A DNA stretch of 64,000 nucleotides from assembly GCA_963716425.1 (NCBI GenBank), contig OY970310.1, forward strand, positions 1,798,807-1,862,806, in the 5' to 3' direction. Positions 45,462 to 63,161 of the stretch are shown piece after piece (the first letter of the stretch is position 1; every line of letters starts with the position of its first letter). A program made the translations under genes and the position numbers. The stretch comes from Candidatus Babeliales bacterium. GTDB lineage: Bacteria > Babelota > Babeliae > Babelales > JBFXEV01. The notes under the pieces were generated by a model, which ran no database searches, was not told the DNA's origin, and saw only the letters and a program-made list of their open reading frames with translations.

Positions 45462-46583
45462 ATGGAGGCATTCATGTTTGATTTTTCTCGTATCACCATC
45501 ACTAAATATTTTCTATTAGCAATACTCATATTTCAGTTCTTTGGCCTTACTGCTCAGATGGAACCCATCATAAAAGACGGTCGTTATTTTTATCCAGAAC
45601 AAGCAGATTTAGACCATGAACACATAAATCTTGGCAAAGCGCTCTCATTTCTTGGCGGCAAGCTCCTTTCACCACAAGCATGGGCACAGAAAATTACTAG
45701 TCTATTTTACCCACCAACAGAAGAAAAAATTGACGCAAACGCGGTACTTAACCCAACGCAAACTATCCCAGAAGCACAGTGCACGCAGCCTACTATTACC
45801 TGGATTGGGCATGCAACTTTTCTCATTCAAACAAACGGCTTTAATATTCTGACTGACCCTATTTTTGGCGATGTAAAAATGGGCCCCTTCACGCTCACCA
45901 AACGTGCTATTAAACCAGGTATTGAACTTGATAATCTACCACCCATACATGCAATAGTTATTTCACATAATCACAGCGATCACACTGATACACATAGTTT
46001 GCAAGCACTTGCACAAAAATATGACCCAATTGTGTATGTTCCAGAAGGCAACAAGGAACTGGTTGCAAGCATGGGTTTCACACGAGTGATTGAAAAAACG
46101 TGGTGGCAGCATGATACATTAACGCTCAATAACCAAACAATTACTATCTCATGCCTTCCTGCATACCATTGGTCCGCGCGCTTCTCACTGGGTAGTTATC
46201 GCAAAGCATTGTGGTCAAGCTGGATGATCAGTACTCAAGACACCCAAATATACTTTGCAGGCGATACTGGCTACGGTCCGCACTTTAAAGAAATTGGTGC
46301 GCAGTTTCCTTCAATCGATATAGCATTGCTACCGATTGCTCCAACGCATGTAGATGAAAATGAACATAATCACAGCCATGTGAATGCACGAGAAGCTGTT
46401 GATGCATTTATAGATCTGAATGCACAGTATTTTGTTCCAATGCATTATGGCACGTTCTTTATGAGCAAGAATTCGCTCACCTATCCTCTTGAAACTCTGT
46501 CAAAGTTTTGGCAAAAGAACCAAGAGTTCCTTAAAGATAAGAATGTGCTTATGGCGCAATGCGGCAAAGCGTATACTTTTTAA
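45462..46583 (+). CDS. MBL-fold metallo-hydrolase (Lactamase_B_2 / NAPE-PLD-like) with N-terminal anchor
   Basis: 'ITWIGHATFLIQTNGFNILTDPIF' and 'HAIVISHNHSDHTD' (HxHxDH). Confidence 0.8.
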   Translation: MEAFMFDFSRITITKYFLLAILIFQFFGLTAQMEPIIKDGRYFYPEQADLDHEHINLGKALSFLGGKLLSPQAWAQKITSLFYPPTEEKIDANAVLNPTQTIPEAQCTQPTITWIGHATFLIQTNGFNILTDPIFGDVKMGPFTLTKRAIKPGIELDNLPPIHAIVISHNHSDHTDTHSLQALAQKYDPIVYVPEGNKELVASMGFTRVIEKTWWQHDTLTLNNQTITISCLPAYHWSARFSLGSYRKALWSSWMISTQDTQIYFAGDTGYGPHFKEIGAQFPSIDIALLPIAPTHVDENEHNHSHVNAREAVDAFIDLNAQYFVPMHYGTFFMSKNSLTYPLETLSKFWQKNQEFLKDKNVLMAQCGKAYTF

Positions 46584-46626
46584 TAACTAAAGAGTATGTT
46601 TCTGCTATTTCTATGCAATGTGCAAA

Positions 46627-47220
46627 TTAGTGTTTAACAACTTTGCACATTGGTTTTCCATTGCATATGCTATGTGTTTGCCAATAATCATGGAAGGCTT
46701 TTACACTCGTTTGAACAAATTCAAAATTTTCTGGCGTTATTTCGGGCTTAGATACATCTTCAAGCAAGTGTTTATCCAACTCACCTAGCGCAAAGATTAT
46801 ATCTTCCGCTTCAGTGTGATCTGTGTCAACCCATTCATCGCCAAAGAGCTCAAGACCAAGCCAAAAACCATCTATCCAATCCAAAAACAAATCGGTAATC
46901 TCATCCCCTGGCAACCCCGATTCCTGAATAGCTGTAAAAGCAACCGGCTCATAGTGCTCCTGACTGAGCTCTACTGCCATATTGTTATGTACTAATACAA
47001 GAAGCTTTAGTATTTCCTGGCCATCCTTGTGCGATGTTAAGATTTCATTAAGCTCAAGAAATTCCAACCACTCGTCCTGTGTAACCTCGCGTGGCCCGCT
47101 CTCTATGGCAGTAAAAAATGCCATAAGTTCAAGTAATGAGTAATCAGTATTCTCTAAAAGAAACCCTGAAAGTTGTTCAAGTTGCTCATCCGTCAACTGT
47201 ATAATAAGTAAATGTGCCAT
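46627..47220 (-). CDS. UPF0149 (YgfB/YecA N-domain-like) family protein
   Basis: 'LTDEQLEQLSGFLLEN..YSLLELMAFFTAIESGPREVTQDEWL' resembles the UPF0149 'L..fL.....m.l.eldGflTA..sgP..i.PseWl' pattern. Tandem paralog follows. Confidence 0.5.
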   Translation of the reverse strand: MAHLLIIQLTDEQLEQLSGFLLENTDYSLLELMAFFTAIESGPREVTQDEWLEFLELNEILTSHKDGQEILKLLVLVHNNMAVELSQEHYEPVAFTAIQESGLPGDEITDLFLDWIDGFWLGLELFGDEWVDTDHTEAEDIIFALGELDKHLLEDVSKPEITPENFEFVQTSVKAFHDYWQTHSICNGKPMCKVVKH

Positions 47221-47235
47221 GAGTTCTCCCTTAAT

Positions 47236-47847
47236 TTATTCTGTTTTGGATTTGGGCATATCAATTTTTGCAATCACACAATGAGGCTTGCCTTCACATG
47301 CGCGATGCTTTACCCAATAATCATGGAATGTTTTTACGTTAGCTTGCACTGTTTCGATATCGGCATTGCTCACCGTGCGTGTTTCATCATCATACAAATA
47401 TTTTGCCACTTTAATAATAGAGCCCATCATGATAGCCGATTCCATATGATCAGGCTGTACCCAATCCCGACCCACTAAATCCATGCCCAGCAAAAAACCA
47501 TCTATCCAATCCAAGAAAAGATCGGTCATTTCATCTGCAGGCATGTTGGATTCTTGTATGAGAGTAAGCGCAACCGGCTTATACTTCTTTTCTCTCAATT
47601 CCGCTTGTACATTATTAAATACCTTAGAAAGGCTTGCAATTATTTCTTGCGACTCTTTTTGCGAACTGAATGATTTTGCGATATCAAGTCGCTCCAGCAA
47701 CTGGTTGAATGCAATAGGTCGCGGACTGCTAATAATTGCAGTAAAAAAACCCATCAGCTGCAGCAGAGAATAGTCAGTCCTTTCTACGAGAAAGGTAGTC
47801 AGTCGTTCAACTTGTCTATCAGTTAACGGTAATTGTATATCTGCCAT
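47236..47847 (-). CDS. UPF0149 (YgfB-like) family protein, tandem paralog
   Basis: 'LTDRQVERLTTFLVERTDYSLLQLMGFFTAIISSPRPI', and a shared 'DLFLDWIDGF.LG' motif. Start set at ATG 47847 (MADIQL). Confidence 0.5.
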   Translation of the reverse strand: MADIQLPLTDRQVERLTTFLVERTDYSLLQLMGFFTAIISSPRPIAFNQLLERLDIAKSFSSQKESQEIIASLSKVFNNVQAELREKKYKPVALTLIQESNMPADEMTDLFLDWIDGFLLGMDLVGRDWVQPDHMESAIMMGSIIKVAKYLYDDETRTVSNADIETVQANVKTFHDYWVKHRACEGKPHCVIAKIDMPKSKTE

Positions 47848-47997
47848 GAGTTCCCACATAAGGCTACGTTACGATCGATTCAGCTTTTAGGTATTTTACT
47901 CATTGTACCACGAACAAATCGAGATAGACATAATTCCGTTATCTACCTGTCCATGATAGGCTTAGTGATACTAATTATTTAGCATAAAAGGATCCTT

Positions 47998-49059
47998 ATG
48001 AAGCTGACTGCGCGTTACTTTGCCTCATCACTGAGACTATTTCAGGTAGATACCTACTCTCAATTAGATACTATACATTTTAATAAACCCTGGAGGCACA
48101 CGCTTTGGCATCATAAATGGTCTTTGCTATTCATACTACTTGGCACTATCGCATGGCATTGCTTTTTTACGCTTGTTCCTATTTTGATAGTACATGCTTT
48201 TGATCCTGCTGCCTCTTTTACCTTTGGCTACGTGATACTACTTTGGTTACTTGTAGAAACATTCAAGCACATCACCTTTGCACTCTATGCCTGCACCAGC
48301 ACAATTATTCCCTTGAGCATACAACATGCTGTGTATGCTACGTTACTTGAGAAAAAGCATCCACTTCTCAGCACACCCGGGGCAGTGGTTGCCAAAATAG
48401 AACGCTGCACGCAATCGTATAAAGAATTATTTGAACTTATGGTATTTGAATTAGTGCCCATTTTCACGGGGCTTGTTACTATGATCACTTCTTTTTTTGT
48501 GTTAAACACCAGCCTGGGCATGCTTTCTTTTCTCTGTTTACTGTGCATCTTTAGCATCTCTACTTTCTTGTTTCTCTTAAATCGCTACGCCTTTGAACCG
48601 CACCTTTTACACAAAGATGATCAAGCAAAAGCTGCAGGTCTTGATGGACTTTTAAAAACAACACATACCCATCACAAAGTATCACAGCTTCATAGAGAAT
48701 CATTAACGCTCTCTATCACCTTTTGGTTTGGTTTTTATGGCATCAATTATCTTACCCGCATCCTTTGGGTAGCAAGTGTCTGTATTATTGGCACTTTCTT
48801 GTATGGTCTTGTGCACGATGCGACGCTACACACAATACAAGCAACCACTTTTTTAATCAGCTATATCCATAGCACCAACAAGATCCGCCAAGTAGGAAGA
48901 CGCATAGAACATTTTGTACAGTGCATTATACGAATTAAAGATCTATTTGCATTCATGGAGCAAGTAGATATGCAAAGCTATCTGCCGGCAATTGAAGAAA
49001 AGAGACATGAGAGTGATCAAATACCAGATAAGTCAAAAGAAAAATTACCTGAAACCTAA
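47998..49059 (+). CDS. polytopic membrane protein, ABC-exporter transmembrane-domain-like, no ATPase domain
   Basis: About six hydrophobic segments. The layout and the C-terminal amphipathic 'RRIEHFVQCIIRIKDLFAFMEQ' resemble the end of a type-I exporter TMD. The ORF ends where an NBD would begin. Confidence 0.35.
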   Translation: MKLTARYFASSLRLFQVDTYSQLDTIHFNKPWRHTLWHHKWSLLFILLGTIAWHCFFTLVPILIVHAFDPAASFTFGYVILLWLLVETFKHITFALYACTSTIIPLSIQHAVYATLLEKKHPLLSTPGAVVAKIERCTQSYKELFELMVFELVPIFTGLVTMITSFFVLNTSLGMLSFLCLLCIFSISTFLFLLNRYAFEPHLLHKDDQAKAAGLDGLLKTTHTHHKVSQLHRESLTLSITFWFGFYGINYLTRILWVASVCIIGTFLYGLVHDATLHTIQATTFLISYIHSTNKIRQVGRRIEHFVQCIIRIKDLFAFMEQVDMQSYLPAIEEKRHESDQIPDKSKEKLPET

Positions 49060-49067
49060 ACGTACTA

Positions 49068-50672
49068 TTACTTAACATCAGCCATAAATAATCCATGAAT
49101 CCCAAATGGAATATGGTGCGGCACATATATGCGTGCCACTTCTTTAAAGGTGAAAGCATCAAGCACTAAGAGAAATGATGCTTGTTTTTGTGCATCAAGA
49201 ACAATGGAAAGCACCACCCCATCATCTTCAGATGTTTGCGATGGCGCGCCCACGAATACGGGTTCACCAGGATAACAGTGCTCTTCAAACCATTCTAAAG
49301 CTTGCCCGTTATTCACATTAACTTTTACAAGCCTATCTGCAACAAATAATGGCGCATGCTTTTTGCCATAGGCATAGACATAGGAATATGGCTTTGTATT
49401 GTACCGCTCATAATTAATACGTGGCAATTCAATAAAATCATCATACAATGTACTCATAACTACAGTAGCTTGTGTAAGATCAACCGTTAACCGAGTTAAC
49501 TGGCCTGCTTCAAGAATGTCTGTGTCTGGCTCTCCCGTATATAATCTATTCCGCTCTAAATTACCAGGATTTTTACCAGCAAAAATAGTATCTATCGTTG
49601 CTTTGCCAATTCCTGAACCATCAGGATAGGTAATAATATCCATTATAAGAGAATTACCCTGTTCAAATGCATTTACTGTATGAAAAGCAAAAAATGCATG
49701 AGTACTATATGTCCCCTGAATCTTGTTATTAATTCTATCAATAACCACCAGCTTGGTTTGAAGCTCAGGCTCCCATCTAAAATTATTAATAAATGACTTA
49801 TTATTTGTTAATAAATCACGTGGATTAACCACTAAGGGTAACAATGTGAATATTGCATAATGCTCTGTCAGGAAAAAACTATGCATATATGAAGGCTCTT
49901 GTACTTCCACTGATGCAAGAACTTCTCGAGTAGTAGATCCATCTTTGATGCGAAAAAGATTATGCGTACTTACCCGACCAAATTGAGTAAAATACCCTAA
50001 ATGCTCTTTACGTTCTTTATCATAATGTGGATGAGCAGTATCATGAATACTGCGCTTTGGCAGCTTATCATCATATTGCAAACCGCCTATGGTGTTTAAA
50101 GTTTTTGGATCAAACTCAATGGGTAAAGGCGTTTCAGTAAGTGCCACCATATGATGCCCATAACATGCAATATTAACATTTGCATTGGGCAATGGATACT
50201 CCTTTCTTATTTTCTTTTCTGGAACAAACAAAGAAAATAATTTCTTAAAATATGACTTACACGGATCTTGTGCAAAACCAGCATATGACATGGTCCCCGC
50301 TTTTTCTACAAATTCATAATCATCAGAGCGCAAAAATCTATTGGCATAGGAAACCTTGCCTTCATGAAATGAAAAAGCATGAATCATTGCAAGCCCATCA
50401 AACCAATTTGAAACCCAACTAGAGCCCTGCGTAAATTTAGCAGGCCCATTACGAAACAAAGTACCAGAAAGCCATGCAGGAAAATGTCCGCTAACAGATA
50501 CCTCATCAATAGTTATTTCTTGCTCTAATGTGGTAAAACCAAGGCGATAAGTATGCGGAATTTCATTTTTGTAGAGCTCATATGGTGATTGTCTTGACTG
50601 TTTAAACCAAGCAAAATATATACCAATGCTCAACAAAATTATACTCGTTAAAATAACTTGCAACTTTCTCAT
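49068..50672 (-). CDS. carotenoid cleavage oxygenase (RPE65/CCO) family protein with N-terminal anchor
   Basis: 'WFDGLAMIHAFSFHEGKVSYANRFLRSDDY', 'HDTAHPHYD', 'MHSFFLTEHY', 'AFHTVNAFE' and terminal 'HIPFGIHGLF' cover the four-His iron ligand regions. Confidence 0.8.
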   Translation of the reverse strand: MRKLQVILTSIILLSIGIYFAWFKQSRQSPYELYKNEIPHTYRLGFTTLEQEITIDEVSVSGHFPAWLSGTLFRNGPAKFTQGSSWVSNWFDGLAMIHAFSFHEGKVSYANRFLRSDDYEFVEKAGTMSYAGFAQDPCKSYFKKLFSLFVPEKKIRKEYPLPNANVNIACYGHHMVALTETPLPIEFDPKTLNTIGGLQYDDKLPKRSIHDTAHPHYDKERKEHLGYFTQFGRVSTHNLFRIKDGSTTREVLASVEVQEPSYMHSFFLTEHYAIFTLLPLVVNPRDLLTNNKSFINNFRWEPELQTKLVVIDRINNKIQGTYSTHAFFAFHTVNAFEQGNSLIMDIITYPDGSGIGKATIDTIFAGKNPGNLERNRLYTGEPDTDILEAGQLTRLTVDLTQATVVMSTLYDDFIELPRINYERYNTKPYSYVYAYGKKHAPLFVADRLVKVNVNNGQALEWFEEHCYPGEPVFVGAPSQTSEDDGVVLSIVLDAQKQASFLLVLDAFTFKEVARIYVPHHIPFGIHGLFMADVK

Positions 50673-50877
50673 TCATTTCCCTACATCATGCGATTAATAC
50701 ATATTAAAATATTAGCATATCATATTCCCATTCTTTCTTACACTTGGATTGCATAGAAGCTCTGCATAAAAGCTGTAACTAATTTTTCATTATTAGAAAA
50801 AACGCTATACATAGTCATCTACCTTGATAAACTGGAAACATAAAGATGATGCTCTTAACTGTTTTGGAAAACAGGTC

Positions 50878-51900
50878 ATGAAAAAAACAACTATTTTAAT
50901 ACTATTTGTAGGTTTTCTCTGCCTTCTTGCAGGGCTAATTTATCTCAAGAAAACTCATAAACCTACTCATCTTGAAAATGCAGTTTCTATTTTCTATGAA
51001 CTCATGCCGCAAGTAAAAATTGAAACGATTACACCTCTTACGGGAGGAGCTTCTGGATCAGGCATTTATAAAGTTACTGCTGATAATCGCTCATATATTC
51101 TTCGCATCTTAGATCCCAATAGAGCACAGCAATCTATACAGCGTGAATTGAGTATTAATCAGCTAATGTCTGAGCTTGGTATTGCTCCTACCATCTATGC
51201 AAGTTCCATTGAACAAAAAGCATTCATTATGCAAGAGGTTACAGGTACTTCTTTATGGGGGCTTCATCTTACGCCTCATGAGATTAAAGATCTGGCTGAC
51301 AAACTCAGACTCATTCATCAACCTTACCCTCAGTTGATGCAAAAGCAAGTGACCCCAAGAGAGATTGCCGAACGTATTGTAAAAAAACATACTGAACTGC
51401 CATTAGCTTTTCAGGAAGCTCTTATAAAGCATGAACCGCATTTTAAAATCTTAGAAACCAAAAAATATGTGCTGACTCACACAGATTTAAACCCCGGCAA
51501 TATACTGAGAGATAATACTACAGGCACACTCAAAATCATTGATTGGGAGGATGCAACTTGGACCCATCCCTATTTAGATATTGCTACTCTATTTATTTTC
51601 TATAATTTAAATCCACAAGAGAGGGGCATGTTCCTAAAAGAATATGGAATTGATTCTAGTAATAAAAAAGAATTAGATGCTGCATATAAGATTCAAAATT
51701 TTATCTATGCATTGTCTTTACTGCGCATTTCATACCGTTTATCCCCACAAGGAGAAACCCCAAATCTTTCTCAACTAGAGGTCGTTAAACAGCTGTTTGA
51801 GCAGAAAGACTTTGCAAAAATTATCGCAATGTTTAATAAAGATGTTACCTATGCATTGGCACTACTTTTACTTGAGCAATCATTTGAAGAGTTAGATTAG
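50878..51900 (+). CDS. APH/choline-kinase-like phosphotransferase with N-terminal TM segment
   Basis: Catalytic loop 'LTHTDLNPGNILRD' and 'KIIDWEDA' (HxDxxxxN...D). Start set at ATG 50878. Confidence 0.75.
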   Translation: MKKTTILILFVGFLCLLAGLIYLKKTHKPTHLENAVSIFYELMPQVKIETITPLTGGASGSGIYKVTADNRSYILRILDPNRAQQSIQRELSINQLMSELGIAPTIYASSIEQKAFIMQEVTGTSLWGLHLTPHEIKDLADKLRLIHQPYPQLMQKQVTPREIAERIVKKHTELPLAFQEALIKHEPHFKILETKKYVLTHTDLNPGNILRDNTTGTLKIIDWEDATWTHPYLDIATLFIFYNLNPQERGMFLKEYGIDSSNKKELDAAYKIQNFIYALSLLRISYRLSPQGETPNLSQLEVVKQLFEQKDFAKIIAMFNKDVTYALALLLLEQSFEELD

Positions 51901-51994
51901 AATCTTAAATAGCTATTCTCAATCAATCACAGCAATGATATGCTGTATCTATAAAATTATTAACAAATGTGGATACAACATAGGATAACACAAT

Positions 51995-53122
51995 ATGAAT
52001 ATCAAACGCCTAATGAGCACCTTCACATTATGTTTCTACACAACCTTCATTTATAGCATCCAGACCATGCAAGAATTTCCAACAATCTGCTTGACTCCTC
52101 CAACAATTACTTCCAACAATGTTTATGAATTAGTAACGTGCATTCGTCCAAAGCATAAAAATGGTTTTCAAGTCTATGGTGAAATAAAGAATGGAAAACT
52201 TATCATGCATAATTACGGGCATGGTGGTGCGGGTTGGACACAGCTATTTGGTTCAGTTCAAAAAATGGTACAGGAATTTGAAAAGAAGCTTATTGAACAT
52301 CCAGAGTTTAAAGGTAAATCGATCTGCATCATTGGTGCTGGATGCATGGGACTTTATAGTGCAATTTTACTCACACAAAAAGGATATAAAGTCAAAATCG
52401 TAGCACATGATTTCTATAATCTTACTTCACATAAGGCTGCAGGGATCTTTTTCCCCAGTTCTTTATATAGTACAGCTCAAAATAAAGAAGTAGAAAACCA
52501 AGTCAATGAAGCTACACTCCAAGAATACTGCGCAATTATTAATGGCACGCATCAGCTTTTTACTTCTGAAGTGGCCCGCTTTCTACCGGTATATGTAGAT
52601 CTTGAAACAGACTATTCGGGTCTTGATTTTTGGCGAGAACCAGAGTTTGTAACTATTGATTTTGGCACTGGCAAGAAATATTCGATGAAAGAATATATCA
52701 CTATATATATTAACGCAGTTGCTATAATGCAACAATTGCATAGACACGTACAAGCTCTCAATATTCCAACTCAACAAGAATACATTGCATCATTCGACCA
52801 AATTCCTGATCACATTATTATTAATTGCTCGGGCTTAGGAGCTCAACAGTTAAACAACGATGCAGAACTGTATCCAGTACAGGGACACTTGATCACACTC
52901 AAAAATCAACCCAATGTTGAGGCGCTTAACTATATTCTACATACTAAAGTCATACAAGATGGCAAAGAAGAATGGGTATATTTTGTACCAAAAGGTGAGG
53001 GATTATTAGGCGTAACTTTTTTAGTAGGTGAAGCTTCCCTAGATTCTAATAAACAAGAATTTGATCGCATACTTGAAAGAGCACAAGAATATTTTGGTAG
53101 TTACACTAATAATAAGCGTTAA
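51995..53122 (+). CDS. D-amino-acid-oxidase-like FAD oxidoreductase, motif order permuted, with signal/anchor
   Basis: DAAO signature-like 'IMHNYGHGGAGWTQLFG' at aa 70-86 lies upstream of the Rossmann 'ICIIGAGCMGLYSAILLTQKGYKVKIV' at aa 110-136. 'IIINCSGLGAQQL...PVQGHLI' lies further downstream. Confidence 0.7.
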   Translation: MNIKRLMSTFTLCFYTTFIYSIQTMQEFPTICLTPPTITSNNVYELVTCIRPKHKNGFQVYGEIKNGKLIMHNYGHGGAGWTQLFGSVQKMVQEFEKKLIEHPEFKGKSICIIGAGCMGLYSAILLTQKGYKVKIVAHDFYNLTSHKAAGIFFPSSLYSTAQNKEVENQVNEATLQEYCAIINGTHQLFTSEVARFLPVYVDLETDYSGLDFWREPEFVTIDFGTGKKYSMKEYITIYINAVAIMQQLHRHVQALNIPTQQEYIASFDQIPDHIIINCSGLGAQQLNNDAELYPVQGHLITLKNQPNVEALNYILHTKVIQDGKEEWVYFVPKGEGLLGVTFLVGEASLDSNKQEFDRILERAQEYFGSYTNNKR

Positions 53123-53124
53123 CA

Positions 53125-54180
53125 ATGCCAGATGATCAAATTATCCATTTAACACCGCCCTTACTTTCCCCAGACCATATTCAAGAATTGGTCACCTGTA
53201 TTCGCCCCAAACATAGAGATGGCTATCAACTCTACGGTGAACTAAAAAACAATAAACTGATCATTCATAATTATGGGCACAGTGGCTCTGGATGGACGCT
53301 CCTCTTTGGTGTTATAGAACAGGTGATGGATGAATTTGAGCATCAACTTGCTGAACATCCGCAATTTAAAAATAAACCAATATGCGTGATCGGGGCAGGC
53401 TGCATGGGGCGTCTCGCCGCTATCACCTTGGCGCGTAAGGGATATGCTGTCACCATAGTTGCAGAGCAAGTTGAAAATATTGCATCAGATAAAGCGGTAG
53501 GCTTATTTTTCCCGTACACGGCATTTACTCCGGTATATAATAAGTATCAACGAGCCCAAGAAGTTTCATTACGAGAATATAGTGCAATCATCAATGGCAC
53601 ACACCCATTTATAACAGCATCTGCTGCCGAGCGACTACCACAATATGTTGATCTGACCACCAAATATTCACGACTTAATTTTTGGGGACCTCCACGGCTG
53701 GTAACTCTCGATTTTGGTGCTGGTACAAAGCATGATGTCAGAGAATATAACACACTGTTTATTCATACGTTCAACATGATGCAACAAATGCAAGCATATA
53801 TTACTAAGCTTGGTATTAAAACGCACGCGCGCCATATTGATTCATTTGATGAAATTGAAGAATCTATTATTATCAATTGTACTGGATTGGGAGCAGAATT
53901 ATTAAATAATGATGCTGGCCTTATTCCCGTGCAAGGACATTTAATTAAATTGAAAGACCAGCCTGCAGCATGCTTAAGATACATTATACACGTACGTGTC
54001 ATGCAGCATGGCAAACCCGAATATGTGTACTTTGCACCGAAAGCATCCGGTGTTTTGGGTAGCACATATATAGAAGGCGAACGGCAACTTGATGCGAATG
54101 CGCATGAATTTGAGTTAATGCTTGAACGCGCGCGCGACTATTTTGGTCCCTCAACTCCCCTAAAGGCTCGATCGGGATGA
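53125..54180 (+). CDS. D-amino-acid-oxidase-like FAD oxidoreductase, permuted, tandem paralog
   Basis: 'IIHNYGHSGSGWTLLFG' at aa 46-62 lies upstream of 'ICVIGAGCMGRLAAITLARKGYAVTIV' at aa 86-112. The start is 2 nt after the stop of the preceding paralog. Confidence 0.7.
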   Translation: MPDDQIIHLTPPLLSPDHIQELVTCIRPKHRDGYQLYGELKNNKLIIHNYGHSGSGWTLLFGVIEQVMDEFEHQLAEHPQFKNKPICVIGAGCMGRLAAITLARKGYAVTIVAEQVENIASDKAVGLFFPYTAFTPVYNKYQRAQEVSLREYSAIINGTHPFITASAAERLPQYVDLTTKYSRLNFWGPPRLVTLDFGAGTKHDVREYNTLFIHTFNMMQQMQAYITKLGIKTHARHIDSFDEIEESIIINCTGLGAELLNNDAGLIPVQGHLIKLKDQPAACLRYIIHVRVMQHGKPEYVYFAPKASGVLGSTYIEGERQLDANAHEFELMLERARDYFGPSTPLKARSG

Positions 54181-54197
54181 ACGGAAAGGAATAAGAC

Positions 54198-55325
54198 ATG
54201 CACGAAGCACTCGAAAAACGACCCACCTATATTTCCATTGATCTCAATGCACTGGAGCATAATTACCATACCATCACAGAATTTGTCTCCGGCGCACAGG
54301 TAATGCCTATTGTAAAAGGCAATGCGTATGGCCATGGTATGATTCAATGCGCACAACACTTGCAAAAAATTGCTGCTCCCTGGCTTGGCGTGGCACTTCT
54401 TGAAGAAGGCATTGCACTACGCAAAGCAGGTATTACCGTTCCCATTGTGGTGCTTGGTGGCATCTTGCATCGACAAATTGAACTGTTCTTAGAATATAAT
54501 CTTGATATTAATGCAGCATCAGTGAACAAGCTAGAAGCAATAGAGCTCCATGCAAAGCATGAGCAAAAACGTGCCCGCGTGCATCTTGAAATTGATACAG
54601 GCATTGAACGCACAGGTATTCATTACTACAATGCACACAAACTTATTGAGTATGCTGCAAAAACTGCCTGGTGTGACATCGTGGGCATCTTCTCTCATTT
54701 TGCGACCGGTGAAGACCAAGACCTCAGTTTTGCCCGCACACAACTTGCGCGATTTAAAGAAAGCATTGCAGACATTTCTTGTTTGCAAGACAAACCGCCA
54801 CTGCTCCATATGGCAGCGTCGGGAGCTATCCTACAACTTCCTGAAAGCCATCTTGATATCGTGCGACCTGGGCTTTTAATGTACGGCATTGCTCCTGCAC
54901 AGCACCTGCATGGCATACTGGATCTTAAGCCAGTAATGTCACTAAGTTCTCGTGTTGTCTATTTTAAGATAGTCAAGGAGGGAGCTGGCGTAAGCTATGG
55001 GCTGACGTGGAAGGCACCTCGTGACACACGCGTGATTACCGTGCCACTTGGCTATGGTGATGGATACAATAGACAATTTATGCATGGTGGGCACGTGATC
55101 ATCCGTGGCAAACGCTACCCTATTATCGGTCGTATTTGCATGGATCAATTTATGGTAGATATTGGCCAAGATGAAGTTTATAATGATGAAGAAGTAATTA
55201 TTATTGGAGAGCAAGGCCACGAACGTATTACGCTTGAAGAATTAACCGGCAAACTTGATGATGGCAATGCGCGGGAAATTACCACCATGTTTGGTATACG
55301 GCTACCCCGTAAGTTTTTACAATAA
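54198..55325 (+). CDS. alr: alanine racemase
   Basis: PLP-Lys motif 'MPIVKGNAYGHG'. 'GVSYGLTWKAPRDTRVITVPLGYGDGYNR', 'GRICMDQFMVD'. Confidence 0.9.
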   Translation: MHEALEKRPTYISIDLNALEHNYHTITEFVSGAQVMPIVKGNAYGHGMIQCAQHLQKIAAPWLGVALLEEGIALRKAGITVPIVVLGGILHRQIELFLEYNLDINAASVNKLEAIELHAKHEQKRARVHLEIDTGIERTGIHYYNAHKLIEYAAKTAWCDIVGIFSHFATGEDQDLSFARTQLARFKESIADISCLQDKPPLLHMAASGAILQLPESHLDIVRPGLLMYGIAPAQHLHGILDLKPVMSLSSRVVYFKIVKEGAGVSYGLTWKAPRDTRVITVPLGYGDGYNRQFMHGGHVIIRGKRYPIIGRICMDQFMVDIGQDEVYNDEEVIIIGEQGHERITLEELTGKLDDGNAREITTMFGIRLPRKFLQ

Positions 55326-55331
55326 AGGAAA

Positions 55332-56315
55332 ATGATGAAAAAGTTATATGCAATACTACACATGGTATTGTTAAGCACCATGTTTGTGCCTCTTGTATCT
55401 GCGCAAGAACGACAAAAACTTAATATTCTTTTAACCAATGATGATGGTTATCATACTCTCGAAATACAAACACTCAAACACACACTTAGGAATGCAGGGC
55501 ACAACGTATTTTTAGTAGCACCCTCATCTAACCAAAGCGGTTGCGGCACATCAGTGCAGCTTTCAAGTAAAGAGGTAAAGTTAATTCATCTTGATATTAA
55601 TGAATATGCGGTAGCAAGTGCTGAGATTGGATATACTTCAGGACCGCATGCAGGCAAAGCTTGGCCTGCAACACCAGGGCAATGCGTTCTTGTTGGCGAG
55701 GAATTAATGTACCAAGCCGGGTACACACCTGATATTGTAATTTCAGGACCAAATCGTGGCGAAAATGTGAGCATTCGATGCGTGCATTCTGGCACCGTAG
55801 GAGCTGCTCAAGTGGCGCGCAGCGTGTGCATGGGAAGAAATTCAATTCCAAGTATTGCCGTAAGTATCAATTTAGGTGCAAATGAAATTCGCATACAAGA
55901 AACGGCAGATTTTATCACCGGGCTCGTAGCATCACTGGACGAGCACCGTGATGAAACTAATCAACTGTTGCCTAATGGCATATTATTGAATATTAATGTT
56001 CCTGCATTAAACAAAGACTTAACCGAACAAGTAAAAATCAAAGGCATTGCACTCTGCAAATCAGGCCAGGCGGTCTACGATACGCACCTTAAAGGACATA
56101 CTGTCTTTAGAGCCTATGATGAAGGTGATGATATATTCCGTATTGATTTATGCGTAGTCGATTTCCCAGATACGGCAGAAAGTTCAGATAACCTTGCCCT
56201 CATGGAAGGCTATATTACCATAGTACCCTTCGTATGTGATTTTACTGCGCACAACAACATGCAAGAAGTGTTCACAAAACTAGCACAGTTCTTTGCCAAG
56301 ACAAAAGAACATTAG
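55332..56315 (+). CDS. surE: SurE-family 5'/3'-nucleotidase with signal peptide
   Basis: 'ILLTNDDGYHTLEIQTL...VFLVAPSSNQSGCGTS' and 'SGPNRGENV' SurE motifs. N-terminal 'MMKKLYAILHMVLLSTMFVPLVSA'. Confidence 0.8.
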   Translation: MMKKLYAILHMVLLSTMFVPLVSAQERQKLNILLTNDDGYHTLEIQTLKHTLRNAGHNVFLVAPSSNQSGCGTSVQLSSKEVKLIHLDINEYAVASAEIGYTSGPHAGKAWPATPGQCVLVGEELMYQAGYTPDIVISGPNRGENVSIRCVHSGTVGAAQVARSVCMGRNSIPSIAVSINLGANEIRIQETADFITGLVASLDEHRDETNQLLPNGILLNINVPALNKDLTEQVKIKGIALCKSGQAVYDTHLKGHTVFRAYDEGDDIFRIDLCVVDFPDTAESSDNLALMEGYITIVPFVCDFTAHNNMQEVFTKLAQFFAKTKEH

Positions 56316-56353
56316 ATCATTAAAGCATACAAAAAACCGCAAGGAATACATAC

Positions 56354-57205
56354 ATGTCTCAAAATTCTGGCATCATTGAACGTGATGGTTATCAGCTTGC
56401 CTATAGCATTGAAGGCACAGGCCCAACGGCAATTGTTATTGGTAGTGCTGTCTATTATCCACGCGTGTTCTCGCAGGAATTGCGCAAACAGTTGCGTCTT
56501 GTGTTTATAGACACGAGAGCGTTTGCACATAATGACCGCCAATTTGTACAGCCTGTTACGCTTGATACTATTCTTGATGATATTGAATATATGCGCGAGC
56601 AGCTCAATCTCACCAATTGCATTATTATTGGCCATTCGGGCCATGGTTATATGGCAATCGAATATGCCAAAAAATATCGACAACAAGTCACTCAGGTGGC
56701 GTTAATTGGCATGGGCCCAGATCATAGTGAAGCAACATATAAAGCGGCAAACGCATATTTGGAGCAATCTGTATGCCCAGAACGTAAAAAGTTGCTTGCA
56801 AAGAATCTAGAAACATTACATGAACAGTTTAAAGCAGAACCTGCCCGCAGATTTATTACGTTGTGCTTGGCTCTAGGCCCCAAGAGTTGGTATACGTATG
56901 ATTTTGATGCTCGCCTACTTTGGAAAGATGTTCACGTGAATATGACTCTCATTGACCATTTCTGGGGATTTATATTTAGAGATATTGATATCACCAAAGG
57001 ACTTAGCTCTTTTGATAAACCAATCTTTTTGGGACTCGGCAAATTCGATTATCTTGTGGCACCCTTTTATATGTGGTATCCACTTAAAGACAAGTTCAAC
57101 AATCTGACGATTAAATTGTTTGAGCATAGTAGCCACACGCCCCAATATGAAGAACCTGAACTATTTGATGCAACGTTGCTTGAATGGTTGAAAAGCCAGT
57201 CTTAA
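56354..57205 (+). CDS. alpha/beta-fold hydrolase (proline-iminopeptidase-like)
   Basis: 'IIIGHSGHGYMAIEYA' nucleophile-elbow region (G-H-S-G-H-G, slightly atypical). C-terminal 'FEHSSHTPQYEEPE' catalytic His region. Confidence 0.65.
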   Translation: MSQNSGIIERDGYQLAYSIEGTGPTAIVIGSAVYYPRVFSQELRKQLRLVFIDTRAFAHNDRQFVQPVTLDTILDDIEYMREQLNLTNCIIIGHSGHGYMAIEYAKKYRQQVTQVALIGMGPDHSEATYKAANAYLEQSVCPERKKLLAKNLETLHEQFKAEPARRFITLCLALGPKSWYTYDFDARLLWKDVHVNMTLIDHFWGFIFRDIDITKGLSSFDKPIFLGLGKFDYLVAPFYMWYPLKDKFNNLTIKLFEHSSHTPQYEEPELFDATLLEWLKSQS

Positions 57206-57220
57206 AATTCACATCATGCG

Positions 57221-57267
57221 CTCAAAGTCTATAATTTGAAACTATAGACTTTGAGTTTTTTCTTTTT
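57221..57267 (+). terminator. rho-independent terminator
   Basis: Perfect 13-bp stem ctcaaagtctata-n9-tatagactttgag followed by TTTTTTCTTTTT. Confidence 0.85.
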
Positions 57268-57343
57268 GTACACTTGTAACTAATAAAGATTCTTACAAAA
57301 AGGGAATTAATTATGTGCAGCGTAGGTGATTTGTAATTAATAA

Positions 57344-58408
57344 TTATATGCCAAAAGCATATGCCCTGCTGCCATGCACAATCTCTTCAACTTCTTCCAC
57401 ATCAAGTAATTCTGCATAAATAAGCAATAGTAGTTCTTCGGTGAGCGACGTTCTGAAAATAAGAGGATCATCGGTACAAATTACTATTGGATGATTCTTG
57501 CGATAATATTCAATGCCAGGATGCATAGTATGGTGATCAACCATCATGGTCAGCTCAGAACTGGTCAAACAAACTTCCACGGGCGTTTTATGTGCAATAA
57601 TCCATGCATATGCAGCATCGCACAAATGCACTGCATGACCCACGCGTTCTGGTTTGAGTGTTTCAAGAAGCAACATTTGATCCGTTTCAAGTGGTGATTC
57701 ACCGATATGGAGCGCTATGCCAAGCCCCGCTTGTTTTGCTTCAAGAATAATAGGCAAAATACCGGCTATATCACCTAAGGTTGAATCACCAGAAATATCA
57801 ATGCCTGCAACCCTACGATCACGATATTCTAATGCAAGATCAACCGTCGCACGTGCATAAGCTACCGCTGCATTACGTTGTAAGCTTAAAAGAATGCATG
57901 CTTTAAACCCATCATTGTGTGCGCGCTCAATGCCACGCACAACGGCATCTAAATATGCTTGGTAGCCCTTGCCCAAATTTTTAAGACCAGTACGAATCTC
58001 CACATATTCCACACCATCTTCTTGCAACGCTTTGCACAAAGCAAAGGTGCCATCTTCAATTTTTTGCTCGGTGTTCACAATCTTGCCTGCAAGTCCAAAT
58101 GCAAAAAACGTATCTTGATACATCATGCCCTCTGCAATTTTATCAAGCCCAACTTGTAACGCTGCAAACTGTTCAGGTGTTGCGATAGTCTGCAGATATT
58201 CGATGGGAAATGAACCACCCAGATGTAAATGTAACTCCGCTTTAGCCAATTTTTTTATTCTCTCATTCACTTCGGGCAAAGCTAGGTCGTACAATCGGCG
58301 CTTCAGCTGCCAAAAAGGCGTTTCCTGTTCAAACAAAGTATATGACGACGCAACCGCACAGGAGATAAAACAGTGGAGCAATACCATACATAGTATATTT
58401 CTTTTCAT
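57344..58408 (-). CDS. add: adenosine deaminase family protein with signal peptide
   Basis: 'KAELHLHLGGSFP', 'ERVGHAVHL', 'VCLTSSE', 'ICTDDPLIF' are the canonical metal/catalytic motifs. N-terminal 'MKRNILCMVLLHCFISCAVA'. Confidence 0.85.
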   Translation of the reverse strand: MKRNILCMVLLHCFISCAVASSYTLFEQETPFWQLKRRLYDLALPEVNERIKKLAKAELHLHLGGSFPIEYLQTIATPEQFAALQVGLDKIAEGMMYQDTFFAFGLAGKIVNTEQKIEDGTFALCKALQEDGVEYVEIRTGLKNLGKGYQAYLDAVVRGIERAHNDGFKACILLSLQRNAAVAYARATVDLALEYRDRRVAGIDISGDSTLGDIAGILPIILEAKQAGLGIALHIGESPLETDQMLLLETLKPERVGHAVHLCDAAYAWIIAHKTPVEVCLTSSELTMMVDHHTMHPGIEYYRKNHPIVICTDDPLIFRTSLTEELLLLIYAELLDVEEVEEIVHGSRAYAFGI

Positions 58409-58424
58409 AATAAAACCTTTGGTG

Positions 58425-58760
58425 CTAATCTATATTTACTTGCAAATCCTGCAACTCACGTTCTTTCATTTCTTGATACAAATTTTTTAGAGCCCTATAC
58501 ACTCTATGAGGCTTATCAAGTTCGTGCTCCTCAACTACAAATCTACCACGGCGATCAGATGGTTTTACACAAGTCCAGAAAGCCCGATATACCTTTCTTT
58601 CTCTACAATACGTTGCTGTACGTACTCCATCCTCGGGAAGGATTGCTGAATAAGAGCAGGAACTATCATCTTCTACATATGATACACATGGTAACATAGC
58701 CATTGCATTAAAAACGGTAGTCATACTCATTACTACAATGCACAATATAGTTTTTTTCAT
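58425..58760 (-). CDS. small secreted hypothetical protein
   Basis: Start set at ATG 58760 (MKKTILCIVVMSMTTVFNAMA), 4 nt after the GNAT stop. No domain recognised. Confidence 0.5.
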   Translation of the reverse strand: MKKTILCIVVMSMTTVFNAMAMLPCVSYVEDDSSCSYSAILPEDGVRTATYCRERKVYRAFWTCVKPSDRRGRFVVEEHELDKPHRVYRALKNLYQEMKERELQDLQVNID

Positions 58761-58764
58761 AAGA

Positions 58765-59364
58765 TTACTCATAACCATTAAATCTAGGGTTCATCCAAAC
58801 CAATTGAATATCTGCTTTAAAACCACCATCTTTTGCGCGTATTCTTTTTTCAAATCTGCCCTCTTCTTTAAACCCTAATCTCTTATACAAACTAATGGCA
58901 GGGTTCGATTCACGCGCTAAAATTTCAACTCTTAAGATATCAGGGTAACACTCTTGTATTTCATGCAAAAAAGTTTGGATCAACTGCGTTCCAATGCCCT
59001 TTCCTTGAAAGTCAGGATCAACTAAAATGCTCCCTCCCGTCAATACATGCGCAAATACTTTCGGCTCAATTCTATACTTTGTCATTGCACCAATAAGCCT
59101 GTCTTCAAGCTCAACAACTAAAATCAACCCTCGGGTAACACCATTTGATAACAGGTCATGAATATACTTATCAGTTATCTCATCACGCGTACGTGCCAAT
59201 CCACCGGGAATTGCGGCAACTCGTTGATACAATTGCTTTAAGCTATCTGTATCTTGAAATTCTGCTTTTCTAATAACGTAATTAAAACTACTTTTTGCCA
59301 TACATACATTGCTTAAAAGAGTAAACGTCATCATTAAAAATGCAAAAATATATTTTACGAACAT
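58765..59364 (-). CDS. GNAT-family N-acetyltransferase with N-terminal hydrophobic segment
   Basis: Acetyl-CoA site 'VDPDFQGKGIGTQLIQ' and 'AISLYKRLGFKEEG'. Confidence 0.8.
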   Translation of the reverse strand: MFVKYIFAFLMMTFTLLSNVCMAKSSFNYVIRKAEFQDTDSLKQLYQRVAAIPGGLARTRDEITDKYIHDLLSNGVTRGLILVVELEDRLIGAMTKYRIEPKVFAHVLTGGSILVDPDFQGKGIGTQLIQTFLHEIQECYPDILRVEILARESNPAISLYKRLGFKEEGRFEKRIRAKDGGFKADIQLVWMNPRFNGYE

Positions 59365-59365
59365 A

Positions 59366-59989
59366 TTACGTCCAAATCTTGCTCAAAGCATAAACACCAA
59401 ACGCAAATATTGCAAATCCAGCAACATAATTAATGTACCGTAACATGGTTACTGACACTTTCTTTCTGAATATCCCAACGGCAAAACATAACATAAACCA
59501 CCATGACGCCGATCCCAAAAATACGCCACCCACAAAGTTTAATGATTCTTGATACCCAGAAACATCAATATTTAGTCCGGTAAAAAGTGCCATAAAATCC
59601 AATATGGTGGCGGGGTTAGTTAATGTTAAAAAAAAGGTTGCTACAAATGCCCATAATAAACCTCCAGGAACAGTCTCTTTTGTATCAATAGACTTGGGTT
59701 GAGAGAATATTTTTTTCAAGCCAAGGAAACATAAAAACAGACCTCCCACTAATGTTAATGGCATTTTATATGCGAGCAATACTGTTTGAGTTGCCTTAAG
59801 ACCAAGAGCTACCAAAATGCCATAACACATATCAGCCGTTGCTGCCCCCAGCCCTGATGCTATACCAAGACGAATGCCTCCCCTTAAGGTTTCTTGTATA
59901 CACAGAAAACCTATTGCTCCCACCGGAGCTGCAATGGAAAATCCGACCGCTATTCCTTCTAATAACAAACTCATATAAGATCCTTCCAT
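59366..59989 (-). CDS. LysE/RhtB-family amino-acid exporter
   Basis: Six-TM 200-aa protein. N-terminal 'GFSIAAPVGAIG' and 'NPATILDF' are typical of LysE. The start may be ATG 59974. Confidence 0.75.
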   Translation of the reverse strand: MEGSYMSLLLEGIAVGFSIAAPVGAIGFLCIQETLRGGIRLGIASGLGAATADMCYGILVALGLKATQTVLLAYKMPLTLVGGLFLCFLGLKKIFSQPKSIDTKETVPGGLLWAFVATFFLTLTNPATILDFMALFTGLNIDVSGYQESLNFVGGVFLGSASWWFMLCFAVGIFRKKVSVTMLRYINYVAGFAIFAFGVYALSKIWT

Positions 59990-60076
59990 AAGAATTGGTT
60001 GACTTAATCCTACTTATGCAGTACAATTTACTATATAATCGCTTTTATACAGAATATTATACGGGAAATCATAAAT

Positions 60077-60544
60077 ATGTCAATAGAAACTACACAATTA
60101 GACCAAATCGACCAGAGAATTATAGCTATACTCCAGCGAGACGCTACGCTCACAAATAGTGAAATTGCACAAAAAATAGAGCTCTCTCCGTCCGCAACTC
60201 ATGAAAGAATACGCAAGTTGCACGCACAAGGGGTAATTAAAAAGATTGCGGCTTTTATAGAAGCCTCAGCAATTGATAGGTCTCTTTGCGCATTTATCTA
60301 TGTGTTAATAGACACACCCCAACACAACAAAAAATTTATTAAAGAAGTAACTGACAATCCTGCAGTGCTGGAATGCCATCATGTAACCGGAGAGTATTCA
60401 TATTTACTCAAAGTTCGCGTTAAGAATACACAGGAACTTGAAACTTTTATCACTGAGTCATTAAAGGGTACACTAGGAATAATACAGTCACTTACGCAAA
60501 TAGTGCTTTCATCGCCAAAAGATGGTGGAACTGTTATAGATTGA
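60077..60544 (+). CDS. Lrp/AsnC-family transcriptional regulator
   Basis: 'LDQIDQRIIAILQRDATLTNSEIAQKIELSPSATHERIRKLHAQGVIKK' HTH plus a C-terminal RAM-type domain. Divergent from the LysE operon. Confidence 0.85.
   Translation: MSIETTQLDQIDQRIIAILQRDATLTNSEIAQKIELSPSATHERIRKLHAQGVIKKIAAFIEASAIDRSLCAFIYVLIDTPQHNKKFIKEVTDNPAVLECHHVTGEYSYLLKVRVKNTQELETFITESLKGTLGIIQSLTQIVLSSPKDGGTVID
60487..60542. repeat. direct repeat copy 1 (last 56 nt of the Lrp/AsnC gene)
   Basis: 52/56 identical by eye to 61233-61288. Confidence 0.8.
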
Positions 60545-60659
60545 ACTCATGTATAATGTATCAAGCTTAAATAGAGAAAAAAACATTGAAACTCTGGCAA
60601 AATACTTAATTATTATTTTCTGTTTATTTTGGACCTCTTGCTATACAAGTGAAAATCAC

Positions 60660-61157
60660 ATGATGAACATTTATTTTATTACTGGAACCAGTGGTGCAGG
60701 GAAAAGCACCCTTATTGAACACTTAAAAAAAAGACTTCCAAAGGATCAATTTGAGATTTATGATTTTGATGAAGTTGGCGTCCCGCCAAATGCTGATCAA
60801 GCATGGCGACTCAAAATAACAGATTATTGGTTGCTCAAAGCAAAAGAAAATCAAAAAAAGAAAAAGTCATCAATTATATGTGGCGTCTCAGTACCATCTG
60901 AAGTATTACAGTCCACACAAAATTTTGATATACCTCTATATTTTGGATTTCTTAAAGTTGATGACACAATCATTCGAAAAAGACTTGCAGCTCGAGATTG
61001 GGAGCAAAAATTGATTCAAGATAATATTATTTGGGCTAGCTATTTGGAAAAAGAAGTTAGCAATCAAAAAAATCATTTGATTGTAAATGGCTCGAATACA
61101 CCCGAAGCAATTGCTGAAACATTTATCGACTGGATACTATTGAAATCAACAAACTAA
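60660..61157 (+). CDS. P-loop NTPase / small-molecule or nucleotide kinase-like protein
   Basis: Walker A 'ITGTSGAGKSTL' at the N-terminus when started at ATG 60660. The ORF is open from 60549, but that extension is hydrophobic and unconserved-looking. Confidence 0.6.
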   Translation: MMNIYFITGTSGAGKSTLIEHLKKRLPKDQFEIYDFDEVGVPPNADQAWRLKITDYWLLKAKENQKKKKSSIICGVSVPSEVLQSTQNFDIPLYFGFLKVDDTIIRKRLAARDWEQKLIQDNIIWASYLEKEVSNQKNHLIVNGSNTPEAIAETFIDWILLKSTN

Positions 61158-61232
61158 AAAGTACGCATTAAAATATGCGACGCTGGAAACATTTATTACC
61201 GACATTTTAAAATCAAAATTAGGGATAATATG

Positions 61233-61288
61233 GTCACTCATGCAAATAGTGCTTTCCTCCCCAAAAGATGGTGGAACTGTTATAGATT
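61233..61288. repeat. direct repeat copy 2 (orphan duplicate of the Lrp/AsnC 3' end)
   Basis: Encodes 'SLMQIVLSSPKDGGTVID*' versus the authentic 'SLTQIVLSSPKDGGTVID*'. Confidence 0.8.
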
Positions 61289-61387
61289 AAGCTATACAAG
61301 CAAACAAGGAAAATGTATTATACTTAAGCATAATTAATAGTGCAATATGCAAGAATAGAAGAAACTCAATAAACAATAAGGGATCAT

Positions 61388-62116
61388 ATGAAATTAGTAT
61401 ATTTTCAATACGCATTACTCTGTTTAGTATATATAAATATCTCTTATGCAATGGATGTACATCAACAACCTGATGCGAGCACAAAATACGTACAAGTTCA
61501 AGCTCACGTTCCATTAGGACCAACTGCAACCATAGAAAAACAGGCCAATTTACAAGTACCAAGCAAACTGCTAGCAACAATTCAAAAGCAAAGACAATCT
61601 GAAGAAGAAATACTAACAGCATACATCAAACAGCGAACTCCAGAATTAACAAAAATGCTAGGTGTTTTTGTTGGTCTTATGCAAAATAATTGCACTGGTC
61701 AACCATTGCAATTGGGCACGTATGATGCCACCCTATTTAGTTTGTTAAAAGCACCACAAACCAGCTTCTTTTATTTGTGTGATAATCGCCTTATTATAGA
61801 TTGGCACTTGGGTGACCATGATGGATGGCGTCTTAATCACAATGTTACAATACAGTACGTACCTAACCATCCCCGTAAAGGAACGCGCTCGGACGCAATG
61901 GTAGAATTTGAGAATAGAACAAAGAACAAGCATTTTGCGGTTCCATTCTCACAATTAGTAACGTTATATGAAAAAGCTGGCCAAAAAAGAACTATTAATC
62001 AAAAAACAGTACTTAAATTAATTGAAACAGTAGCATCAGTAGACGAATTCACAAAACTTCACGCGGCGGATATAGTTGCTCTGGCACGGTATTATATTGA
62101 CAATCACGCAAAATAA
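61388..62116 (+). CDS. secreted hypothetical protein
   Basis: Signal 'MKLVYFQYALLCLVYINISYA'. No domain recognised. Confidence 0.55.
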   Translation: MKLVYFQYALLCLVYINISYAMDVHQQPDASTKYVQVQAHVPLGPTATIEKQANLQVPSKLLATIQKQRQSEEEILTAYIKQRTPELTKMLGVFVGLMQNNCTGQPLQLGTYDATLFSLLKAPQTSFFYLCDNRLIIDWHLGDHDGWRLNHNVTIQYVPNHPRKGTRSDAMVEFENRTKNKHFAVPFSQLVTLYEKAGQKRTINQKTVLKLIETVASVDEFTKLHAADIVALARYYIDNHAK

Positions 62117-63156: not shown

Positions 63157-63161
63157 CAGTC

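Follow-up and report, generated by a model that had tools for sequence, protein, structure and literature searches.

Canonical D-amino-acid oxidases (DAAOs) are peroxisomal or cytosolic. Natural circular permutations, in which a fold is kept and its termini are relocated, occur among DNA methyltransferases, transaldolases, swaposins and beta-glucanases, and are usually explained by a tandem duplication whose copies fuse in frame and then lose their outer parts. The canonical DAAOs and D-aspartate oxidases (DDOs; structures 1KIF, 2DU8 and 5WWV, human DDO 6RKF and yeast 1C0I) adopt a two-domain flavin adenine dinucleotide (FAD) fold in which the Rossmann element comes first and the family signature lies some 30–40 residues from the C-terminus. 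According to a review, it is largely unknown what bacterial DAAOs do. In the dadA-dadX arrangement of Proteobacteria, a gene for a DAO-superfamily flavoenzyme stands immediately upstream of an alanine racemase gene on the same strand, the implied logic being that alanine is racemised and D-Ala is then deaminated to pyruvate. Here we describe two adjacent DAAO-like genes, A and B, that lie directly upstream of an alanine racemase gene (alr) in a 64,000-nt stretch of contig OY970310.1 from a Candidatus Babeliales bacterium (the window, to which all coordinates refer; Table 1). Both proteins have the same two-domain FAD fold as the canonical enzymes with its order rotated. We conclude with good confidence that A and B are permuted paralogues of the DAAO/DDO group carrying an old family trait, that B and alr form a putative dadAX-like module for the catabolism of alanine and D-alanine, and that A is a leader-bearing paralogue.

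The two open reading frames are intact and collinear from Met25 of A, which corresponds to Met1 of B, with 53% identity between the proteins. In A the DAAO signature IMHNYGHGGAGWTQLFG (aa 70–86) precedes the dinucleotide-binding box IIGAGCMG (aa 112–119), and in B the signature IIHNYGHSGSGWTLLFG (aa 46–62) precedes VIGAGCMG (aa 88–95). An earlier sequence-only reading of the window had noted this order of motifs, as well as the 2-nt spacing of the genes and their different frames, and the reading frames and motif positions agree with it on each point. The change of frame at the junction is consistent with translational coupling. A promoter and terminator scan of 50.6–56.7 kb returned counts equal to the shuffled expectation and is uninformative on operon boundaries; an exact look-up of protein A returned no record.

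Both proteins fall among the DAAOs and DDOs in sequence and structure searches. Pfam DAO (PF01266) matches A with 74.1 bits and B with 85.4 bits against a gathering score of 27.9, the top 17 phmmer matches in the PDB are all DAAO or DDO, and the same is true of Foldseek ranks 1–33 (E ~1e-11 to 1e-9), with sarcosine, glycine and opine oxidases appearing only from E ~1e-6. No NCBIfam model claims either protein, all matches being far under the cut-offs; that to the ThiO glycine oxidase model (TIGR02352) is 42–50 bits against 250.8. Neither A nor B has the canonical N-to-C order, and because their order is rotated we file them as a permuted variant and not as canonical DAAO/DDO members.

The matches of B to solved structures are split and reversed, which argues that the reversed motif order is not due to chance: B 88–319 aligns with pig DAAO 5–246 and B 41–76 with pig DAAO 300–335, while B 24–83 aligns with residues 325–384 of Rasamsonia DAAO. 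Canonical-order relatives joined to themselves were used as doubled phmmer targets. On doubled P0054, a canonical-order relative, A 48–364 aligned with 271–580 as one collinear domain across the junction (75 bits), against a split match of 51 and 15 bits on single-copy P0054, and B 11–282 aligned with 259–531 of a doubled canonical target at 80 bits; matches of A and B to single-copy canonical targets were split, and weaker than those to doubled ones. Profile comparison gave the same picture. When the permuted family profile (A1, 51 sequences) was compared by hhalign with a canonical profile (A2, 14 sequences) whose columns had been doubled, a single alignment was obtained that pairs B 10–351 with columns 256–605 (E 3.5e-64, score 494). 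The core alone scored 343 against canonical 5–263 (E 1e-46), and the N-terminal segment of B alone found the canonical C-terminus at E 7.7e-20. Searched separately against Pfam DAO, the N-terminal segments map to the end of the 353-position profile (293–346 for B, 306–346 for A) and the cores of both proteins to positions 2–299. The match of native B ends at profile position 299, whereas B de-permuted in silico (84–351 followed by 1–83) gives one full-length match (positions 2–346, 87 bits).

The AlphaFold2 (AF2) model of B is confident (mean predicted local distance difference test score, pLDDT, 91.9; predicted template modelling score 0.91), including the N-terminal segment (pLDDT 92–98), and its closest folds are DAAO and DDO. 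Structural rotation was judged from the order of secondary-structure elements in this model and in that of canonical P0054. Strands (E) and helices (H) run E19–30, E35–41, E44–50, H60–77, E86–89, H93–104, E109–113 and onwards to H326–340 in B, and E7–11, H15–26, E30–35 and onwards to H244–257, E265–276, E282–284, E290–293 and H304–324 in P0054, such that the two modelled orders differ by a cyclic rotation. The cut falls after the helix equivalent to canonical ~244–257, and the old termini are linked by about 8 residues (B 78–85). The part that has moved comprises the C-terminal ~60–80 residues, a strand-strand-strand-helix unit with the Arg that binds the carboxylate and the HNYGHGG loop. Foldseek aligned B best with pig and human DAAO and DDO over ~275 columns (TM ~0.6), a partial alignment of the kind expected when a sequential aligner meets a rotated chain. 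Among PDB entries, no permuted structure stood above DAAO/DDO in the Foldseek ranking, and none was among the top phmmer matches. On the basis of the doubled-profile alignment, the de-permutation, the secondary-structure rotation and the mapping of Pfam segments, we conclude that A and B are circular permutants of the DAAO fold, as the sequence-only reading had proposed.

The permuted proteins share with canonical DAAO the GxGxxG box, the T/S-S-x-x-A-A-G FAD loop, the HNYGHGG loop and the equivalents of pig Arg283 and Tyr228; unlike it, they run from canonical ~265 to the end and then from 1 to ~260, with new termini. The FAD-binding motifs, comprising GxGxxG, the acidic end of beta-2 and the FAD loop, read VIGAGCMG...TIVAEQ...IASDKAVG in B, and the same motifs read IIGAGCMG...KIVAHD...LTSHKAAG in A. 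Gly90, Gly92 and Gly95 of B are invariant in the family alignment and Ser121 is nearly so, while A keeps 14 of the 14 invariant residues. Pig Arg283 and Gly313 align with Arg27 and Gly54 of B, both invariant in the 51 family members, and pig Tyr228 aligns with Tyr302 of B. The ratio of nonsynonymous to synonymous substitution rates (dN/dS) for B against its orthologues is 0.09–0.10, that of the transplanted segment is 0.07, and both segments lie within 0.07–0.11; B is under purifying selection.

The permuted order is shared by a large family. A word-indexed search gave about 55 cluster representatives with this order, and a scan of GTDB species genomes gave 522 relatives, of which the best 80 were examined as genome loci. 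All 80 are permuted single genes, which places the order in at least 80 species genomes. They span about ten phyla and include Babeliales/Dependentiae, Rickettsiales (Tisiphia, Cyrtobacter), Endozoicomonas, Sphingomonadales and Caulobacterales, together with Acidobacteriota, Bacteroidota, Verrucomicrobiota, Planctomycetota, Pseudoalteromonas and Bradyrhizobium. An exhaustive hidden Markov model search found 1,753 representatives at 50% identity (E<=1e-30); the best 150 of these, to which our statements on order apply, all match the permuted profile over its full length, with canonical order in none and no fused-duplicate intermediate among them. Database labels call the family proteins "FAD-dependent oxidoreductase" or "D-amino-acid oxidase". 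When the sequences were de-permuted in silico, permuted and canonical members were separated by one bipartition (bootstrap 68/100, with a small canonical sample), which is compatible with a single old origin. The permutation is probably an old, single-origin trait of a large bacterial family.

Five long homologues (P0151, P0181, P0169, P0120 and P0088) were considered as fused-duplicate intermediates and rejected, each having one signature and one GxGxxG; their length comes from an internal insertion of ~130 aa or from long leaders. In P0151, P0181 and P0169 (457–519 aa) the insertion lies in the substrate-binding domain after the GHLxxL strand and may be a lid or oligomerisation module.

Many members of the permuted family carry Tat (twin-arginine) or lipoprotein leaders, unlike canonical DAAO. 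A twin-arginine leader is present at 58 of the 80 genome loci, 37 of these with a lipobox, which implies export of the folded, FAD-loaded enzyme. Among the DAO reading frames of genome loci L008–L086, most of those outside Dependentiae have a twin-arginine start and often a lipobox Cys, for example MLLDRRTFAAGSAALLSGCAT in Sphingomonadales, which points to a class of periplasmic lipoprotein flavoenzymes. A twin-arginine signal was found in neither A nor B, and the Rickettsiales members have hydrophobic leaders without the arginine pair. The leader of A consists of a K/R n-region followed by a hydrophobic stretch, with K4R5 and no RR consensus; the sequence-only reading had singled out this additional signal or anchor sequence, and the leader is also hydrophobic in P0009, the orthologue of A, the B clade being leaderless. 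An AGGA stands 11 nt upstream of the ATG at 51995, and no Shine-Dalgarno sequence precedes the internal ATG at 52067. The leader of A reads as a Sec-type signal or membrane anchor and, being hydrophobic without RR, suggests that A is membrane-anchored or exported; A is thus probably a membrane or periplasmic paralogue. As a separate observation, an annotated D-amino acid oxidase (A0A060QKK3) was among the proteins released by the alphaproteobacterium Asaia bogorensis (PMC12502724).

In close Babeliales relatives, alr always follows the B-type gene. The two are adjacent and co-oriented in the window and in contigs L001/L007, L004 and L005, with a gap of 17 nt in the window and 1 nt in L004 and an overlap of 32 nt in L005, and the order is kept, with genes overlapping or abutting, across genomes separated by a synonymous divergence (dS) above 1.5. 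A SurE-family nucleotidase gene begins 6 nt after alr in the window and is kept downstream of alr in L004 and L005; it probably belongs to the same transcription unit. The racemase matches the generic model TIGR00492 with 340 bits against a cut-off of 168. Like dadA-dadX, the B-alr pair has a DAO-superfamily flavoenzyme gene immediately upstream of an alanine racemase gene on the same strand, with the same implied logic. Unlike DadA, however, B is permuted and belongs to the DAAO/DDO branch. It is not a DadA orthologue (23–27 bits against 383 for NF001933; across the DadA models NF001933 and NF009074, 17–27 bits against cut-offs of 383–494), nor is alr the DadX equivalog. By analogy, then, B-alr resembles dadAX in arrangement and is not a member by orthology.

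The permutation, the family membership, the paralogy, the conserved linkage to alr and the purifying selection are shown by these data, whereas the substrate, the electron acceptor, the localisation of A and co-transcription are inferred. The chain starts at canonical ~260–270, such that the three strands and helix that normally end the protein come first and supply the substrate-carboxylate Arg and the HNYGHGG loop; a linker of about 8 residues leads into Rossmann beta-1, and the chain ends past the helix found just before the cut in the canonical chain. In a subclade of Babeliales (Dependentiae), a leaderless and presumably cytoplasmic B is fixed immediately upstream of alr. Because the conserved B-alr pairing mirrors dadA-dadX, we propose that B deaminates D-Ala made by, or equilibrated through, Alr: L-Ala would be racemised to D-Ala and this oxidatively deaminated to pyruvate and ammonium, with H2O2 also produced if O2 is the acceptor. 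Alternatively, B may directly consume D-Ala that is imported or derived from the cell wall. A would be a later-retained paralogue with a hydrophobic leader, acting at the membrane or in the periplasm.

Several observations weigh against this interpretation. Pig Tyr224 is not conserved, and the residue of B at this position is P298. The DAAO signature, in its PROSITE-type form [LIVM]2-H-[NHA]-Y-G-x-[GSA]2-x-G-x5-G-x-A, fits A and B except at its last position (G-x-V/I in place of G-x-A); the strict pattern is found in 13 of the 51 permuted and all 14 canonical sequences, and without the last position in 31 of the 51 permuted ones. The racemase reaches 171 bits against the 600 of the catabolic DadX model NF002970 and may simply serve the cell wall. 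It would be unusual for an FAD enzyme to be exported by Sec, and the leader of A may instead be a membrane anchor. The single origin of the permutation is moderately supported by its bootstrap value. Finally, the 3,056-nt contig L087 (Logan ERR11748453, another assembly), which is identical to the window including the A/B junction, possibly comes from the same sample and is then a weak independent confirmation.

The permuted enzymes could act not on D-alanine or other D-amino acids but on glycine, sarcosine, opines or other amines, or could be quinone-donating dehydrogenases, with the adjacency to alr being incidental or regulatory. The unconserved Tyr224 and the deviating signature would fit such a reading, as would the weak matches to ThiO and MnmC models and the absence of a conserved neighbourhood of permuted genes outside one Babeliales subclade in the examined genomes. 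In Sphingopyxis, Ekhidna, Bradyrhizobium, Luteolibacter, Pseudoalteromonas, an Acidobacteriota metagenome-assembled genome and another Babeliales, the neighbours are unrelated housekeeping genes (HslV, HflX, RF3, HPPD, RF-1 domain) that give no functional clue. Endozoicomonas members also sit beside sugar aminotransferase and oxidoreductase genes. However, the nearest neighbours in sequence and structure are specifically DAAO and DDO, which lead the sarcosine, glycine and opine oxidases by about five orders of magnitude; the NCBIfam matches are all far below their cut-offs; neither the Arg that binds the carboxylate nor the Gly in the HNYGHGG loop varies in the family; and the DAO-alr order has survived at dS above 1.5. 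We therefore consider a different substrate rather unlikely, and favour D-amino acid oxidation by A and B. For Endozoicomonas, the permuted gene follows a GFO_IDH_MocA oxidoreductase gene and a DegT/DnrJ/EryC1 sugar aminotransferase gene on the same strand (L002/L003 3894..7188), a context that hints at a different, possibly amino-sugar-related substrate.

Copy A might also be decaying or non-functional, its leader being an over-extended reading frame whose true start is Met25. The alignment with B begins exactly at that residue, A has the lower GC content and one known orthologue, and its Pfam match is more fragmented (3 stretches). Yet the reading frame is unbroken and lacks none of the invariant family residues, the 65% identical orthologue P0009 carries a similarly long hydrophobic leader of its own, the Shine-Dalgarno-like AGGA precedes the upstream ATG and not Met25, and leaders are the rule in the permuted family. 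Decay is improbable, and we regard A as a retained, leader-bearing copy.

The sequence-only reading had further interpreted the tandem pair as the footprint of the permutation itself, such that a canonical gene was duplicated, the array re-partitioned, and the core of A followed by the head of B left as the ancestral remnant. It is true that the core of A and the N-terminal segment of B together read in canonical order, but this is the trivial result of placing two permuted genes head to tail. The linker of about 8 residues is roughly as long as the two canonical terminal tails together, as would fit an origin by duplication and fusion somewhere in the history of the family. The genealogy of the locus does not support an event here. 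In a neighbour-joining tree, A and its single orthologue P0009 are sister to a multi-species B clade, and both copies are nested deep inside the Dependentiae branch with all outgroups already permuted; the tandem copies are thus not mutual closest relatives joined at a node where permutation arose from a canonical ancestor. Single-copy permuted genes occur in Rickettsiales, Sphingomonadales, Acidobacteriota, Bacteroidota, Verrucomicrobiota, Planctomycetota and others, and no fused-duplicate intermediate was found in the top 150 representatives. Sister genomes have one B-type gene at the locus, in the order RPE65(-), DAO, alr in L001 and L004 and DAO, alr, SurE in L005. The RPE65-type gene (L001 4247..5872, L004 3141..4733) is the divergent neighbour of DAO-alr in several Babeliales genomes, and the block of about 2.3 kb that separates it from B in the window, comprising an APH-family kinase gene and A, is absent in L001 and L004, which suggests that it was inserted here or lost elsewhere. 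The GC content of kinase and A is 0.33–0.39, against 0.41–0.46 for B and alr. Since permuted single genes are widespread, the pair is nested in the tree and relatives are single-copy, A and B are a secondary arrangement of already-permuted paralogues: a late pair, with the permutation not created at this locus. The footprint interpretation is accordingly very improbable. A missed frameshift near 53110–53130 that hides a canonical single-frame or fused gene, suggested by the 2-nt spacing and the different frames, is extremely unlikely, because each reading frame by itself matches the permuted profile completely and over its full length, B-type orthologues in L001, L004, L005 and L006 begin M..IHLTPP after a non-coding gap, the junction is identical in another assembly, and a frameshift would give a 726-aa double protein and not a canonical DAAO.

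Table 1. Positions of the permuted DAAO-like genes, their parts and the adjoining genes in the 64,000-nt window.
Feature	Position	Strand	Basis
Gene A, permuted DAAO-like flavoenzyme, 375 aa, N-terminal leader	51995..53122	+	Open reading frame, Pfam DAO
A leader, aa 1–24, MNIKRLMSTFTLCFYTTFIYSIQT	51995..52066	+	
A transplanted segment, aa 25–107, homologous to canonical DAAO C-terminus	52067..52315	+	Pfam DAO, doubled-target alignment
A Arg51 codon	52145-52147	+	
A signature	52202-52252	+	
A core, aa 108–375, Rossmann beta-alpha-beta and substrate-binding domain	52316..53119	+	Pfam DAO N-terminal/middle positions
A GxGxxG box	52328-52351	+	
A/B junction: TAA stop, CA (2 nt), ATG start	53120..53127	+	
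Gene B, permuted DAAO-like flavoenzyme, 351 aa, leaderless	53125..54180	+	Open reading frame, Pfam DAO, AF2 model
B transplanted segment, aa 1–83	53125..53373	+	Pfam DAO, hhalign, pLDDT, dN/dS
B Arg27 codon	53203-53205	+	
B signature	53260-53310	+	
B core, aa 84–351, Rossmann fold and substrate-binding domain	53374..54177	+	Pfam DAO, hhalign
B GxGxxG box	53386-53409	+	
Alanine racemase (alr)	54198..55325	+	TIGR00492, Pfam Ala_racemase_N and Ala_racemase_C
SurE-family nucleotidase	55332..56315	+	Pfam SurE
APH/choline-kinase-family gene, directly upstream of A	50824..51900	+	Pfam APH
RPE65-type carotenoid-cleavage oxygenase, hydrophobic N-terminus	49068..50672	-	Pfam, 400 bits

Some further features of the window and of related contigs were recorded. 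The N-terminus of the SurE-family nucleotidase (MMKKLYAILHMVLLSTMFVPLVSAQE) resembles a signal peptide; SurE is normally cytoplasmic. Seven tandem paralogous reading frames of 286–370 aa, with 28–52% pairwise identity, occupy 38067..45377 (+) and are a lineage-specific expansion; three of the seven have weak Pfam Peptidase_M48 matches, and an MBL-fold gene follows them at 45462..46583. Related Babeliales contigs show another local paralogue expansion close to the DAO locus, where UPF0149-family genes stand two to four in a row (L004 718..1938; L005 528..1698 and 3726..5177; L006 3271..5812). Across the whole window (1..64000), neither a tRNA gene nor an Rfam family at the gathering threshold was found.

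Searches of the open-access literature (PMC, bioRxiv) turned up no account of naturally permuted DAAOs or of Tat-lipoprotein DAAOs, and nothing relevant on circularly permuted flavoenzymes, periplasmic DAAO or Dependentiae alr. The permuted bacterial enzyme family is apparently large, widespread and undescribed. What sets it apart from other natural permutations is that the nucleotide-binding beta-alpha-beta unit of a GR2-type flavoprotein no longer stands at the N-terminus, and the change defines a whole subfamily. More tentatively, and with rather less confidence than we place in the permutation, this may be an ancient subfamily of typically Tat-exported periplasmic lipoproteins that oxidise peptidoglycan-derived or environmental D-amino acids, from which intracellular lineages (Dependentiae, Rickettsiales) would have made cytoplasmic or Sec-anchored forms; the Babeliales copy would have been wired to alr as a non-orthologous dadAX replacement, and A and B might split the compartments, one outside the membrane and one inside.

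A natural and widespread family of this kind indicates that the DAAO fold tolerates relocated termini, with the Rossmann beta-alpha-beta beginning at about residue 85 and the catalytic Arg coming from the new N-terminus. It offers protein engineers an existing permuted scaffold in which fusions can be made at new points. The permutation also explains the truncated domain annotation of family proteins, and points to the periplasmic Tat-lipoprotein D-amino-acid oxidases of common soil and marine bacteria as a pool that seems to have gone unstudied. In the very reduced metabolism of Dependentiae, the conserved pairing of DAO with alr suggests that alanine may be routed to pyruvate.

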